Under the pieces are notes generated by a model. That model saw only the letters and a program-made list of their open reading frames with translations, ran no database searches and was not told where the DNA came from. The position numbers and the translations under genes are program-made. 64,000 bases of DNA from an uncultured Bacteroidota bacterium (GTDB lineage Bacteria; Bacteroidota; Bacteroidia; Chitinophagales; Chitinophagaceae), in assembly GCA_963718975.1 (NCBI GenBank), contig CAVRBD010000007.1, forward strand, positions 5,722 through 69,721. Reading direction: 5' to 3'. Shown piece by piece: positions 1 through 11,515 of this stretch (the first letter of the stretch is position 1; each line of letters starts with the position of its first letter).

Positions 1-30
1 TTTGGCAATTTAATTGATTTTTATCAGAGC

Positions 31-58
31 AAAACTCAATTGGTGAGGTTTTTTTTTG
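31..58 (+). terminator. Possible intrinsic terminator of a gene upstream of the window
   Basis: Imperfect stem aaaactca-attgg-tgaggtttt followed by a T run. Confidence 0.4.
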
Positions 59-114
59 GAGGTTAATTACACCCGTAAACAATCAATGTTAAACCACCAA
101 AAAACTTACTGGAC

Positions 115-183
115 ATGACAAACAAAATGCTTATTGGAAATTTGCCAACAGTTGCAAACTGGCCTTGGACTCCTTGGATTTAA
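115..183 (+). CDS. Candidate 22-aa Trp/Pro-rich peptide MTNKMLIGNLPTVANWPWTPWI (below the ORF track cutoff)
   Basis: ATG115 to TAA183 open frame; A/C-rich leader (aaaccaccaaaaaacttact) typical of Bacteroidota translation starts; directly upstream of a two-component locus. Confidence 0.4.
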   Translation: MTNKMLIGNLPTVANWPWTPWI

Positions 184-255: not shown

Positions 256-263
256 TATATTTG
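256..263 (+). promoter_or_regulatory. Bacteroidota sigma70 -7 box (TATATTTG)
   Basis: Matches TAnnTTTG, 17 nt before the 280 start. Confidence 0.5.
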
Positions 264-279
264 AACTAATATTTGCAAA

Positions 280-954
280 TTGATAGTATTAATTATTTTA
301 GGGCTGTTAGCCCAAGTATCACCTTTAGTTCTATATTTTGTTTTCTATAAAAAGATTTCAAAACTCGTAGAAGTAAAGGTGTTTTTTTTTTATGTAGTTT
401 TATCTTTTGCTTCTATTATCATATCTGGGATTTTTAAAAGCCATCAATCTATAATTATAAGTGTTTTTGCAATTTGTGAGTTTGCTTTTTTTTCGGCGCT
501 CCTATATTTGTGTATCAAGAACAAAAAAGTTAAAAAAATAATTTTTATTGTTGCTATTTTAAATTTATTAATTGAAATTGTTCTGTTTTATTCATTAAAA
601 TCAAATTTTGATTTTTGGGCTGCCCTTCTCAATGCTATTTTGATTGTTATATATTCTATTTATTTTTTTTACGAGCAGATAAATTCGCAAGAAGCTCAAG
701 TGATATATAAATCCCATCAATTTTGGCTTGTTGCAGGTTGTATTATTTACCTTTCAGGCACTTTGTTTTTATTTCTTTATACAGCTGAGCTAAAGGATAA
801 AGAAACGAGTTCTTTGTGGATTATTAATATAGCTTTTGAGATTGTGAAGAACATATCTTTCTCAATTGCTTTTATCCTGGCAAGAAATAGCAGCAAGCAA
901 AATTTGGCTATGCAATATTCCAATGATACGAATATGTTCGAAAAGCCGTTTTAA
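280..954 (+). CDS. Polytopic (~7 TM) membrane protein, probable accessory sensor of the downstream kinase
   Basis: 224 aa, mostly hydrophobic helices; motifs shared with 2609..3283. Confidence 0.75.
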   Translation: MIVLIILGLLAQVSPLVLYFVFYKKISKLVEVKVFFFYVVLSFASIIISGIFKSHQSIIISVFAICEFAFFSALLYLCIKNKKVKKIIFIVAILNLLIEIVLFYSLKSNFDFWAALLNAILIVIYSIYFFYEQINSQEAQVIYKSHQFWLVAGCIIYLSGTLFLFLYTAELKDKETSSLWIINIAFEIVKNISFSIAFILARNSSKQNLAMQYSNDTNMFEKPF

Positions 955-987: not shown

Positions 988-1825
988 ATGATATTTCTAC
1001 AAATTATTGACCGCGGAAGTAATGTGCCAATGGTGCTTTTTTTTGGCACCATTGCTATGCTTGCTCTTACTATTGGCCTTATCGTCTTTATCATCTTTCA
1101 CCAGCGAAAAGGCCCTTCGTTTTCAAATGCAGTTGCAGAAAATGGAATACGACCAGCAGAAAATGCTTTTGAACGCATCTCTTAAATTACAGGAAGAAGA
1201 ACGTCAACGGATAGCCGAAGATTTGCATGACGACGCTGGCCCGCTGCTTGCAACAGCACGATTATACCTCAATGAAAATTTGGTAAACCTCGATAAAACG
1301 ACACAGCTTCAAAGCATCTACAATGCCAAGCAGATCATTGATGATACCATTCAATTGATCAGAAATATATCTCACAGCCTGATGCCGCCTACCCTAAAAA
1401 ATTTCGGGCTTGAATCGGCTGTAAATGATTTGTTCCAGAAAATAAGCAGCTCGGGCAGCATGAATGCCAGTTCCCGCTTTCATGATTATCGCGAGCGCAT
1501 GCAGCCGGAAAATGAGCTGATTATTTTTAGGGTGATACAGGAACTTGTAAATAATATTCTCAAGCACAGCAATGCAAGCTTTATTCATTTAACGCAAAAT
1601 ACCAATAACAATAAATTTTTCATTCGCCTTCACCACGATGGCCGGGGGCTGACCCAGGCAGATTTTGAAAAGCTGAACAAAAGCTCTGTTGGGCTTGGGC
1701 TAAAAAATATTCAAAGCCGTTTGAGAATTTTGCAAGGAAAGATTTTTTTTGAAAAAGATATATCGCAAACTTATTTTAAAGTAACTATTGAGTTAATTAA
1801 AGAGAATTCAATGATTCCACAATAG
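988..1825 (+). CDS. Sensor histidine kinase (one TM, HisKA_3 + HATPase_c), +1 frameshift at A-run 1107-1110
   Basis: N-terminal TM in frame 988; EEERQRIAEDLHDD H-box, QELVNNILKH N-box and GLGLKNI in frame 1007; removing one A joins HQRK to ALRFQMQ. Confidence 0.85.
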
Positions 1826-1874
1826 TGCTGAGTATTTCTACGTACCTTTAACAAGACTGCTAAAAGAGATACCT

Positions 1875-2525
1875 ATGAGCGTTATTAAAGTTGCAATTGC
1901 TGATGACCACAAAATATTCCGAAAGGGTGTTATATTATCACTTCGCCCCTATAGCAACATCAAATTTGTTCAGGAAGCAGAAAACGGCCAGGAACTGATT
2001 GACGGGTTAACTTCGTCTGAGCCTGATGTCATTCTCATGGACTTAAGGATGCCTTTAAAAGACGGGATCGAAACTACAAAGCTTGTAGCAAAACAATATC
2101 CCAATATTCACATTCTTGCCTTAACGATTTATGAAGATGAGCGCTTTGTTAGCCACATGATGGAGATTGGCGCAAACGGCTATCTTCTGAAAAGTGCAGA
2201 TCCATCTGAAATAAAAAAAGCGATTGTTGAAGTTGCAACAAAAGGGTATTATCTAAATAATTTCGTGAACCGGATATTGCTCAAAAAGTCTCATTCAAAA
2301 ACAAAGGTCATTCCTAATTTGAACATTGAAGTAACGCTTACTGACCGTGAAAGAGATGTAGTGAAATATATTTGTATGGAGTTTACCGCGCAAGAAATTG
2401 CACAAAAGCTGGAAGTAAGCCCACGGACTGTTGAAGCAATAAAAGACCGGCTGATGGAACGCTTTGGCGCTAAAAACACAGCAGGACTTGTATTCTTTGC
2501 TGTAAAAAATAATCTCATTGATTGA
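1875..2525 (+). CDS. NarL/LuxR-family response regulator
   Basis: IADDH...LMDLRMP receiver domain; LTDRE...SPRTVE HTH. Confidence 0.95.
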   Translation: MSVIKVAIADDHKIFRKGVILSLRPYSNIKFVQEAENGQELIDGLTSSEPDVILMDLRMPLKDGIETTKLVAKQYPNIHILALTIYEDERFVSHMMEIGANGYLLKSADPSEIKKAIVEVATKGYYLNNFVNRILLKKSHSKTKVIPNLNIEVTLTDRERDVVKYICMEFTAQEIAQKLEVSPRTVEAIKDRLMERFGAKNTAGLVFFAVKNNLID

Positions 2526-2608
2526 TTCTCTGTAAGCACAAAAAGAAATCGAAAATCCAATATATCGTATCTCTGTGAACAACCGGTTTTGCTGAAACAA
2601 ACTGCCCC

Positions 2609-3283
2609 ATGATTAAGACCGGTAACATATTTCTTGATTTCATTTCATTTCTATCTGCCGTTTTCCCTCTTTTGCCGGTTGTAGTTGTTTTCATAAAAAA
2701 AAACTACTACAATGAGTCACTGAATTTTTTGATGATATTATGTTTGTTGAATTTTATAAAAAATATTTTACTATTCGTTATTGACATAAATACTTCCTCC
2801 CAAAATATCATAGCTAATATTTTTTCACTGATTGAGTTTATTATCCTATTCCTGATTTTCAAAAATCTGGCCTCACAAAAATTCTGGAATTACATAAATA
2901 TTTGCTTCAGCGTTTTCCTATCGGTAATCATCACCATTTACCTGTTGCGTGGCGCAGAAAATAAAATATTTGTTATTGAAGAATTTCAAAATGCTATCAT
3001 AGTTTCTGCCAGCATTTTTTGCATCATTAAACTGGCATATAGCGATAGCCTGCTTATTTTTAATCAACCATTATTGTGGATTGCGATAGGATCTTTATTT
3101 TACTTCTCAATTGCAATTTTATTGCAATCGTTGAATAAGGTGTATGAAGAAACTCCGAATGAAAATATTTCAGGAAGCATGTTATTGCTTAATATCGGAA
3201 GCACTGCTAGGTATTTTTTTTATTTGCTTGCGGCATTTTTTCATGAAGGCAGAAATGACAGAAAGAAAAAAAATCTGTCTTAG
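2609..3283 (+). CDS. Polytopic (~7 TM) membrane protein, paralog of 280..954
   Basis: 224 aa; IFSLIEF / [12 protein letters not shown] echo VFAICEF / FWLVAGCIIYLS. Confidence 0.7.
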
Positions 3284-3939
3284 AAAAATTGCATATCAAT
3301 AACATCTTTATCAACAATAAGCTTGCCTGCTGTTTTATCTTTGATTTCTTCAACTGAAACACCCGGTGCTTTCTCCAGCAGTTTAAACCCTTGTTGGGTA
3401 ATTTCTAAAACAGCTAAATCTGTTACAATTTTTTTCACACATTTAACTCCCGTAAGTGGCAGAGTGCATGATGGCAACAATTTTGATTCTCCTTTAGGAT
3501 TGGTATGCTGCATAGCAACGATAATGTTTCTTGCACTTGCAACAAGATCCATCGCTCCGCCCATTCCTTTTACCATTTTGCCGGGTATTTTCCAATTGGC
3601 GATGTCGCCGTTTTCTGAAACTTCCATTGCACCTAAAACAGTAAGTCCAACTTTCCCTGCTCTTATCATCCCAAAACTTTCTGCGCTGTCAAAAAAAGAG
3701 CCTCCGGGCAAAATAGTCACTGTTTCTTTTCCCGCATTTATGAGGTCGGCATCAATTTCTTCATCAGTTGGATAAGGCCCCATGCCTAACATTCCATTTT
3801 CAGATTGAAGCATGATCGATATTCCTTTTGGTATATAATTGGCAACTAATGTTGGGATGCCGATGCCGAGATTCACATACATGCCATCTTTCAATTCCTG
3901 AGCTATGCGTTTCGCAATACCAAATTTATCTAACGGCAT
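3280..3939 (-). CDS. scoB: 3-oxoacid CoA-transferase subunit B
   Basis: [13 protein letters not shown] (catalytic Glu), GMGGAMDL. Confidence 0.9.
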
Positions 3940-10552: not shown

Positions 10553-11515
10553 GTGAAATTATCGCAGTCAATATTACGGGAAGAGCTAATAGTCTTTGAG
10601 AAAGAATTTAAAGAAGCTGTTAAAAGCCAAGTGCCTTTATTAGACAGGATCATGCGCTTTATAGTGAACAGAAAGGGCAAACAGCTTAGGCCTATGTTCG
10701 TTCTTTTGTCTGCAAAATTATGCGGCAAAATCAATGAATCTACCTATAGAGCAGCTTCCTTGGTTGAATTGCTCCATACAGCAAGCCTTGTGCATGATGA
10801 CGTTGTAGATGAATCTTTTGAAAGGCGAGGTTTTTTTTCAACTTATGCGCTTTGGAAATCCAAGGTTTCTGTTCTTGTAGGCGATTATCTGTTTGCAAAA
10901 GGAATGCTGCTGTCGCTAGATCATAATGATTTCAGGGTCTTGCAAATTCTTTCCAAAGCTGTAAGGCAAATGAGCGAGGGAGAATTGTCCCAAATGGAAA
11001 AAGCACGCTCATTGAACCTCGATGAAAATACTTACTATGAAATTATTCGTTATAAAACCGCATCATTGTTAGCATCTGCGTGCGGGGCTGGTGCATTTTC
11101 TTCAAGCAATGACGAAACGCTTACCGAAAAACTCAGGATGTTTGGCGAAAAAACAGGCATTGCATTTCAAATAAAAGACGATCTTTTTGATTATGGAAGT
11201 GAATCGGTTGGCAAGCCGACTGGAAATGATATCAAGGAAAAAAAAATTACTCTACCACTAATCTATACCATTAACAATGCAGACAAACCACTTCGAAGGG
11301 AATTAATTTATATCTTAAAGAATCAAAATAAAAATCCTGAAAAAGTGCAGTATGTAATTAAAAAAGTGATTGAAGCCGGTGGCATAGAATATGCTATAAA
11401 GATGATGAACAAATATAGAGATGAGGCACTTGCAATTTTAAGCGAATTCGAAGAAGGTGATGCAAGAAATGGTCTCGAAGAATTGGTTAACTTCACTACA
11501 GGAAGAAAATATTAA
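10553..11515 (+). CDS. ispB: Polyprenyl diphosphate synthase (IspB-like)
   Basis: GKQLRP, LVHDDVVD (FARM), FQIKDD (SARM). Confidence 0.85.
   Translation: MKLSQSILREELIVFEKEFKEAVKSQVPLLDRIMRFIVNRKGKQLRPMFVLLSAKLCGKINESTYRAASLVELLHTASLVHDDVVDESFERRGFFSTYALWKSKVSVLVGDYLFAKGMLLSLDHNDFRVLQILSKAVRQMSEGELSQMEKARSLNLDENTYYEIIRYKTASLLASACGAGAFSSSNDETLTEKLRMFGEKTGIAFQIKDDLFDYGSESVGKPTGNDIKEKKITLPLIYTINNADKPLRRELIYILKNQNKNPEKVQYVIKKVIEAGGIEYAIKMMNKYRDEALAILSEFEEGDARNGLEELVNFTTGRKY

Follow-up and report, generated by a model that had tools for sequence, protein, structure and literature searches.

A Trp-rich peptide gene of 22 codons beside a 7TM-kinase-regulator locus in Chitinophagaceae: the minimal form of a larger partner protein?

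Can an unannotated open reading frame (ORF) of 22 codons, situated just before a two-component signalling locus, be a gene, and if so, does its product act on the proteins encoded next to it? The frame is a small ORF (sORF) at positions 115-183 of a 64,000-nucleotide (nt) stretch of Chitinophagaceae DNA, here called the window (G000:C7:5722-69721), to which 5.7 kb of upstream DNA were added as L002. It encodes the peptide MTNKMLIGNLPTVANWPWTPWI, polar and rich in T/N/K/S at the head and rich in W/P/F in the tail; the final seven residues, WPWTPWI, include three Trp and two Pro. The initial annotation described a Trp-rich frame of 22 amino acids (aa) with this end, placed before a cluster encoding a seven-transmembrane (7TM) protein, a histidine kinase, a response regulator and a second 7TM protein. 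Both points are borne out: the frame is present and all four genes were found, the first beginning after a gap of 96 nt from the sORF stop. To judge from its relatives, the sORF is a genuine, selected coding gene and not a chance frame. It is presumably translated, and that its product would represent a minimal form of a tail-bearing partner protein is strongly supported on comparative grounds. The prospect that the peptide is a self-encoded modulator or ligand of the 7TM-kinase complex is put at about even.

Frames this short can arise by chance, as the initial annotation cautioned. Has this one? A DNA search in relatives showed ~80% identity to genomes G003 and G027 over L002 5593-5889, that is, from ~240 nt upstream of the sORF into the sORF itself, and in the first alignment three congeners were seen to have an ORF at the same ATG. 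With the 7TM protein as query, orthologous loci were then gathered in the genus, which is probably Puia (Chitinophagaceae) for the genomes that share the short sORF, and the slot was read in each. In the short-form subclade, defined as the 13 species with 7TM identity of at least 47%, the aligned ATG opens a 12-24-aa ORF with an aromatic tail in 13/13 species. Five further metagenome contigs also hold such a frame, the sequence being new in four of the five. This brings the total to 18 related genomes and contigs with a 12-27-aa ORF in the slot, the frame being kept despite changes in length. All 18 sORFs begin M-[T/I/A]-[N/T/S]-[K/R/A/N] and finish in a Trp/Pro/Phe tail. Examples from species are MTNKKLVSNATVVAYWPWWPF, MINKQLIAGQTSANLDLWLWLFGR, MTTKRNTRDVNGTSAFYPWWPF, MTNKTFTAANGSANLLPWWVWPF and MTTRNYTLPWWF; those from the metagenome contigs are MINNKIITGTINQWPWPWF, MTNAKLTSNVTVVTFWPWIPWL, MTTKRNSTTRTSFLPWWF, MTNKRNTRSNKESFDFYPTWPFSNLLF and MANKKIKNETTSFWPAWPWGN.

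The coding signature is found in the Trp codons. Among the 13 scored species, TGG occurs 30, 0 and 6 times inside the ORFs in frames 0, 1 and 2, respectively; the downstream spacers of the 13 species hold 7 TGG in 951 nt. The last eight residues, pooled over the same species, comprise 29 W, 19 P and 14 F of 104, and per-species shuffles give P ~0.001 for two or more W among these residues, a number reached in 11 of the 13. Weaker tails are present in two members, G283 (...FWPFPIPGLGR) and G282 (...GFLPWSF). A frame in the same slot in every subclade species and the bias of TGG to frame 0 answer the caution about a chance ORF, and the conserved small ORF upstream of homologous loci and the codon-level conservation that the initial annotation proposed looking for are both found. 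Its expectation of a WPxxPW-like C terminus holds in part. The W/P/F-rich character of the ends is conserved, but the exact sequence varies freely, and the tails differ in almost every species.

The start is well defined. An in-frame TAA at 76-78 makes ATG115 the first start of the frame. It had been noted that one extra A in the run at 99-104 would extend the frame to ATG86; the arithmetic is correct, but the orthologues all start at the position of ATG115. ATG86 does open an overlapping upstream ORF (uORF) of 10 codons (window 86-118, MLNHQKTYWT), whose TGA overlaps the sORF start (ATGA). This uORF is retained only in the closest relatives (L092, and as a variant in L108) and is therefore probably a by-product of leader conservation. 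The sORF peptide has no Pfam or NCBIfam match, contains no Cys and lacks a hydrophobic stretch of transmembrane (TM) length, its aromatic tail spanning 8-10 residues only. At the sORF position none of the five short-form metagenome contigs has a called gene, and of ten short-form sequences one is present, unnamed, in a collection of 15 billion proteins.

How did so short a gene originate? In other genera, and in the remaining congeneric species, the slot between the same leader and the 7TM gene is occupied by an ORF of 115-136 aa. This long form begins MMQNELITK... and carries a conserved domain of ~100 aa that ends KGIVADR (pattern IGEEIG...ILAQPGCVGIRFYNA...TLVYVG.D..G...GIVADR), followed by a low-complexity P/T/G/S-rich linker, in many cases containing an acidic patch, and finally by a short aromatic tail of the W-x-W type, e.g. 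DDWNWTID, EEGWGWIID, DFWWDFE or SWWKWIFGW. Most of the long-form tails are without Pro, and many read W-N/S/G-W-T/S. DNA alignments show that long and short forms share the T-run of the leader, the GGAGG...CCTC hairpin, AAAAACTTACT-ATG and the beginning M-[TM]-[QN]-[NK]. Individual tails also match. The long G275 end WLWPF* (SWLWPF*) compares with WVWPF* of the short G272, and also with a short YWPWWPF*; the long G292 LWDLIFGR*, and likewise a long DWIWPFGR..., with the short G027 LWLWLFGR*; and the long G308 FWPW* (IGFWPW*) with the short G268 IIWPWS*. The nearest outgroups by 7TM similarity (G313 and L110, 39-40% identity) retain the long form. The ~100-aa domain is absent from all 18 short ORFs, and a tblastn search of the sORF's own genome found no long form, only a distant lipoprotein paralogue elsewhere.

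Because leader, start and aromatic C-terminal tail are common to both, the sORF can be read as the long gene minus its ~100-aa domain. On this evidence it arose through one ancestral internal deletion, in which the leader, the start, about ten polar codons and the tail were retained. Compared with the long-form partner family, the sORF has the adjoining 7TM, HisKA_3 and NarL genes on the same strand (as in 4 + 19 + 6 loci), the leader and start, and the tail; the domain is what it lacks. Close homologues of the long form number 611, almost all of them without a name or called 'hypothetical', and the long form has no match in Pfam or NCBIfam; a PDB sequence search with its profile gave a chance-level match only. 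Most long-form genomes have an in-frame stop four codons 5' of the ATG, so the long form is signal-less. The natural deletion of the domain makes the tail the piece to synthesize and test.

The partner proteins extend well beyond Chitinophagaceae. A profile search gave 951 representative clusters of the family. Besides the single-domain class with W tails there are tandem-domain proteins of 230-270 aa, many with a signal peptide or lipobox, whose ends are motifs of the CPPxC type (PCPPFC, CPSYCSG). In other Bacteroidota families (loci L093-L104) the superfamily mixes members with and without signal peptides, and the end is usually such a motif (PCPPFC, CPPYC, CPEYC, CPPWC); a tail sensitive to redox state or metals is suggested by the Cys pair. 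In other Bacteroidota families a kinase and/or regulator lies beside the domain protein in 8/12 sampled loci, usually with a 5-7TM protein, and four of those eight loci have the full order of partner, 5-7TM protein, HisKA_3-like kinase and NarL-type regulator. A paralogous module is present in the same genome on another contig (C32). Its partner is a 160-aa lipoprotein (lipobox LTSC) with the same domain and the end GQGCSPCK, and downstream are genes for a 230-aa 7TM protein, with the same predicted topology as the first 7TM protein of the present locus by eye, a 248-aa HisKA_3-type kinase and a 222-aa NarL-type regulator. Among Chitinophagaceae of other genera, partner, first 7TM protein, kinase and regulator follow one another in 18/19 loci; the second 7TM protein is found in about half of them, and a divergent second regulator is usual.

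What would the peptide act upon? The two 7TM proteins, here 7TM-a and 7TM-b, have no Pfam or NCBIfam match. The AlphaFold2 model of 7TM-a has seven long helices (pLDDT 85, pTM 0.81), and a Foldseek search with it returned generic bundles of the G-protein-coupled receptor (GPCR)/rhodopsin kind only (TM-score ~0.5, E>0.1), with no specific relative and no protease fold. An N-out/C-in orientation is predicted because the K+R charges number 13 inside and 5 outside. 7TM-b is collinear with 7TM-a at 25% identity (E 0.076). The kinase is without a sensor domain by Pfam.

The components of the locus differ widely in rate of change, measured as identity to this genome's proteins. Within the short clade the kinase is 85-89% identical, the operon regulator 97-99%, the divergent regulator 94-97% and a neighbouring CoA-transferase, used as a yardstick, 85-89%; 7TM-a is only 48-63% and 7TM-b 52-62% identical. 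Across genera the kinase remains at 72-81% and the operon regulator at 76-89%, while the 7TM proteins fall to about 25-35% (7TM-a 27-35%, 7TM-b 24-32%). A variable tail and variable 7TM proteins, set against a conserved kinase and regulator, fit a putative tail-7TM interaction under pressure to diverge. In the congener L022 (G004:C413) 7TM-a is tandemly duplicated at 1353-3447, the copies having 63% and 52% identity to that of this genome, which points to turnover of the 7TM components; no separate match to 7TM-b was found in the stretch fetched from this locus.

These observations can be combined in a tentative mechanism. The tail would be the active element of the peptide, docking on the fast-evolving 7TM protein or proteins, and these would set the activity of the sensor-less kinase and the regulators, both conserved. 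A regulator of the module might then act on sites upstream of the sORF, with feedback on expression of the peptide. Candidate sites are present: the palindrome TAGTAAAAATACTA, unique in the genome; the heptamer TTTTACT, found four times in 798 nt with 0.23 expected; and the 14-mer TTAGAACTTTTACT, which has two genomic copies only, one in the sORF upstream region and the other upstream of a neighbouring small transcription unit. These boxes look like putative operators for a NarL-type regulator. Most likely the peptide would act on the receptor complex of the cell that produces it, as a membrane-proximal modulator or an autocrine input. Such a self-acting modulator that is not exported is favoured because there is no signal peptide and no linked exporter, protease or modifying enzyme, and because the ancestor was a signal-less domain protein.

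Several points weigh against this mechanism. Fast evolution of the 7TM proteins may merely reflect weak constraint on membrane proteins, and with this alternative the rate contrast is no proof of a tail-7TM interaction. Conservation is 0.69 in the periplasmic and 0.75 in the cytoplasmic half of the 7TM protein, without clear skew, and a binding face is not indicated. Homologues with a signal peptide or lipobox work outside the cytoplasm, in one paralogue beside a 7TM protein of the same topology, and this is awkward for a cytoplasmic site. At least 600 homologues keep the ~100-aa domain, and in most lineages the tail is therefore not the sole functional part. The structure model of the long form, and with it that of the domain, is too poor to serve in a fold search (AlphaFold, pLDDT 54; helix-helix-4 strands, predicted with low confidence).

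Table 1. Features of the sORF locus and its paralogue; positions are those of the window unless a contig is given
Feature	Position	Strand	Remarks
Proximal part of conserved upstream region (~250 nt)	1..48	+	TTGGCAATTTAATTGA..., CAATTGG
T9 run at start of leader	49..57	+	nearly invariant in ~45 aligned loci, with or without a possible preceding stem
Leader hairpin	55..101	+	5' arm UUUGGAGGU (55-63), 3' arm ACCACCAAA (93-101)
sORF	115..183	+	ATG to TAA, 22 codons
-7 box	256..263	+	TATATTTG; near-invariant in two alignments bar two divergent loci
7TM-a (224 aa)	280..954	+	GPCR/rhodopsin-like helical bundle, predicted N-out/C-in
Histidine kinase	1007..1825	+	one N-terminal TM helix, HisKA_3, HATPase_c (Pfam)
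NarL/LuxR-type response regulator	1875..2525	+	REC + GerE (Pfam, NCBIfam)
7TM-b (224 aa)	2609..3283	+	distant paralogue of 7TM-a
Paralogous module, same genome	G000 C32:75115-77819		partner, 7TM, kinase, regulator

Is the sORF a unit of its own, or the head of the operon transcript? The region upstream of it was aligned across 24+24 genomes, and the distal part of the conserved region lies outside the window, at L002 5590-5721. In the leader that follows (Table 1), the hairpin has one A:A mismatch here and 9/9 pairs in most long-form genomes. Its consensus is UUU(A/G)G(A/G)GGU / ACC(U/A)C(U/C)AAA, with covariation at pair 4 (A-U, G-U or G-C) and pair 6 (A-U or G-U). The short clade has a weaker form of it, and one subclade has lost it; the minimum free energy of positions 47-117, including the leader stem, is -10.3 kcal/mol. 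The initial annotation had assumed a probable terminator upstream of the sORF. The candidate, at 35-47, is a 4-bp stem of -2.8 kcal/mol that was not called by the terminator scan and is not kept in relatives, and the T-run is now assigned to the conserved leader, as it is nearly invariant whether or not a preceding stem forms.

On the other side of the sORF, the spacer between its stop and the -7 box TATATTTG is unconserved (29-110 nt). TATATTTG fits the consensus of the Bacteroidetes sigma-A -7 box, TAnnTTTG, and is likely to be the own promoter box of the 7TM-HK-RR-7TM operon (HK, histidine kinase; RR, response regulator). A near-invariant box after an unconserved spacer makes the sORF a separate unit and not an operon leader, and the description of it as heading the locus on one transcript has to be given up. 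A sigma-54 promoter (TGGCAA-N5-TTGA) was also considered and rejected: its GG/GC spacing and bases are, by eye, unconserved in relatives, and there is no enhancer-binding protein.

Could the peptide instead be a diffusible quorum pheromone, exported, perhaps after trimming or modification of Trp, to bind the periplasmic face of the 7TM protein and autoinduce its own promoter? The Trp-rich short C-terminal tail is of the right kind, and a HisKA_3 kinase with a NarL-type regulator is the arrangement of ComP/ComA. Peptide and membrane sensor are hypervariable in a pherotype-like way next to a kinase and regulator that are conserved, the 7TM protein resembles a receptor and is predicted N-out, the related partner proteins of other modules are extracytoplasmic, and the sORF has a separate, strongly conserved promoter region with operator-like boxes. 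The conserved module, however, is without a signal peptide, a double-glycine (GG) leader, an ABC/C39 exporter, an AgrB-like peptidase or a ComQ-like prenyltransferase, and PF00348 genes are found only on another contig or 10 kb off behind unrelated genes. The ancestor was a signal-less protein of ~130 aa with a conserved domain, and in a diderm host the outer membrane would have to be crossed twice. A pheromone of this kind is possible but doubtful. The peptide-sensing, quorum-like circuit proposed in the initial annotation thus survives in part: a selected peptide gene is tied to a 7TM-HK-RR locus with agr/comQXP-like variability, but signal peptide, exporter, protease and modifying enzyme are lacking, and the ~130-aa ancestor was signal-less and unlike a classical pheromone precursor, its homologues elsewhere often being tethered lipoproteins.

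A farther-reaching proposal joins the peptide to the wider family. It would hold that Bacteroidota have an undescribed and widespread four-gene cassette in which a stand-alone GPCR-like 7TM protein has the partner tail (CPPxC in most families, W-x-W in Chitinophagaceae) as its ligand and drives a sensor-less HisKA_3 kinase, and that the partner, reduced in the Puia-like lineage to a leaderless Trp-rich peptide of 12-27 aa, is there released and sensed between cells. As a whole this is unlikely. If true for the released Puia-like peptide, the phylum would have its first quorum-sensing system based on a ribosomal peptide pheromone, with divergence of specificity like that of com/agr and a co-regulated small RNA as output.

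Might the sORF be no more than a decaying remnant of the long gene, its frame surviving through a recent deletion or by chance? The derivation from a larger gene by domain loss is clear, tails are weak in G283 and G282, and lengths vary. The clade is old, however, with 7TM orthologues down to 47-63% identity, yet 18/18 sORFs keep the ATG, the open frame and the aromatic tail despite insertions and deletions. TGG is rare in a genome of 39% guanine plus cytosine, yet it is enriched and in frame, and the leader/promoter region is still ~80% identical. Decay is a very improbable account of this pattern.

A further alternative is that the peptide is an antimicrobial or other precursor of the RiPP type (peptides made on the ribosome and modified after translation), in which Trp is cross-linked or modified by an unlinked enzyme and the two-component system serves as regulator or immunity sensor. 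The core of darobactin is WNWSKSF, which the many long-form tails of the W-N/S/G-W-T/S form resemble; as in typical precursors, a leader-like domain is followed by a linker and a short conserved core at the C terminus, and the CPPxC tails of distant homologues are core-like. At no inspected locus, however, is there a conserved radical-SAM, P450, cyclase, protease or transporter gene; lipoprotein signals, present in many homologues, are unusual for precursors; and leader-dependent maturation would be abolished in the short clade, where the 'leader' is gone. Such a precursor is scarcely to be expected here. Least credible is a cis-acting leader peptide (a regulatory uORF) that tunes the operon by stalling on Trp/Pro codons or through supply of Trp-tRNA: stalling at clusters of Trp and Pro is known (TnaC, WPP-type arrest sequences, TrpL) and the operon begins 96 nt after the sORF, but the terminator scan finds no terminator or antiterminator after the sORF, the spacer of 29-110 nt shows no conservation, a near-invariant -7 box belongs to the operon itself, the long forms homologous to the sORF are domain proteins of ~130 aa with mostly Pro-free tails, and the downstream genes encode signalling proteins unrelated to Trp metabolism.

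The DNA upstream of the sORF has further elements. The closest gene is that of the divergent NarL-type regulator, ~800 nt away, and a second copy of this gene with its upstream region is found 1.67 kb further on. L002 2699-5420 is a tandem duplication with a period of ~1667 nt, the unit being the NarL-type regulator gene plus a small-RNA candidate; a decayed LuxR-HTH fragment (...SRVWLVMYAIKNE) is present on the opposite strand at L002 4141-4320. The candidate small RNA, of ~110-125 nt, maps to L002 5298-5417 (+), ~300 nt before the window start, and its paralogue to L002 3632-3751. It has a promoter of the Bacteroidetes type (-33 TTG, -7 TATTTTTG at L002 5285-5292), a 13-bp closing stem GAAGUUGAUUGAU/AUCAAUCAACUUC followed by a U-run, and a highly conserved C/A-rich, unpaired interior with repeated (A/G)UCC motifs. 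It was found in 16/26 related loci, other genera included, and has no Rfam match; a comparison of 9.5 kb around the locus with known RNA families gave none at E<=1 above noise. The box TTAGAACTTTTACT is common to the candidate and the sORF upstream region, and the small RNA may therefore be an output of the same regulators. Pairing of it with the sORF leader (9 nt here) was considered and rejected, as it is unconserved and z-scores are significant in 3/19 genomes only. Between the small-RNA candidate and the sORF promoter, at L002 5552-5586, the sequence TTATCCACA matches the DnaA box perfectly; ~15 nt from it is an inverted TGTGG(A/G)(A/T)A half-site, and CCCCGTTTTTAAAATCC comes before it. 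This element is conserved across genera.

What is the significance of the locus? Peptide signalling via two-component systems is textbook matter for Firmicutes. A literature search found no description of ribosomal peptide signalling via two-component systems in Bacteroidota, nor of the partner family or of peptide/two-component signalling in Chitinophagaceae; the remark in the initial annotation that the system was not recognized as described accords with this. The locus offers a testable candidate, with a tiny unannotated gene, a receptor-like 7TM family without a database model and a sensor-less kinase. Even on a conservative reading there appears to be a new conserved cassette, consisting of a partner with an effector tail, a 7TM protein, a kinase and a regulator, in several Bacteroidota families. 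The sORF would also show that a protein of ~130 aa can be reduced to a functional peptide of ~20 aa that gene callers overlook.

How does the locus compare with known systems? TrpL and TnaC differ in that here the scan finds no terminator-like site after the sORF, the operon has its own promoter box and signalling genes lie downstream. Systems of the darobactin-type RiPP class differ as well, no radical-SAM/SPASM maturase or exporter having been seen in the inspected flanks, here or in relatives; the inspection drew on lists of ORFs, on Pfam calls in two contig flanks and on similarity to proteins of the module itself, and covers linked genes. The streptococcal ComS/XIP and SHP peptides come from unannotated leaderless sORFs of 17-30 aa, in which the hydrophobic C terminus, often with double Trp, is the signal; after re-import they bind cytoplasmic regulators of the TPR type, whose genes are adjacent. 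The present sORF is likewise unannotated and leaderless with a Trp-rich C-terminal part. It differs from RRNPP/Rgg systems in that the neighbouring regulators are all REC+GerE response regulators, with no TPR-type receptor among them.

MgrB and SafA, which act on PhoQ, are single-pass membrane-protein modulators of sensor kinases. There, as here, a tiny gene is found by a two-component system, and the product would act back on the kinase inside the producing cell without export machinery; the present peptide, however, has no TM helix and probably works via a separate 7TM protein. In the staphylococcal agr system, too, a small peptide gene stands by genes for a polytopic membrane protein, for a kinase and for a regulator, with a hypervariable peptide/sensor segment, and here a candidate small structured RNA is next to the module, as is the divergent RNAIII there, although pairing of the candidate with the peptide leader is unconserved. 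The differences are that there is no AgrB/AgrD Pfam match, that the peptide has no Cys for a thiolactone, that the regulator is REC+GerE and not LytTR, and that the 7TM proteins carry no protease signature. Both comQXP/comA and agrBDC/agrA show the same pattern, a variable peptide and sensor combined with a kinase core and regulator that are conserved.

The closest known system in logic, and in kinase and regulator families, is ComQXPA. In Bacillus subtilis it comprises the ComX pheromone, the ComP kinase and the ComA regulator, and complete Com systems have been described by census or survey only in Firmicutes (PMC4008528, PMC8895600). Between the divergent regulator and the 7TM gene of the present locus there is no ComQ-like ORF. 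A ComQ-like prenyltransferase was looked for and rejected: the genome's two PF00348 genes are of housekeeping type, on contig C6 and at window 10634-11365, and neither is in the module. The latter, a polyprenyl-synthase gene on the same strand, is ~10 kb downstream past unrelated housekeeping genes and is itself probably housekeeping. A fused polytopic kinase was seen in none of the inspected loci, where a HisKA_3 kinase and a GerE regulator are present. The likenesses to ComQXPA are otherwise several. The peptide gene directly precedes the sensor genes and shares their strand; the active part, as here proposed, would be the short Trp-containing C terminus of a precursor without a signal peptide; kinase and regulator belong to the HisKA_3 and NarL/LuxR types, respectively; and peptide and membrane sensor vary while the kinase core and regulator are conserved. 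What sets the present locus apart is that the sensor of ComP is the N-terminal domain of the kinase, whereas here it would consist of one or two separate 7TM polypeptides of ~224 aa, and that the peptide descends from a ~130-aa protein with a conserved domain in a diderm Bacteroidota host.

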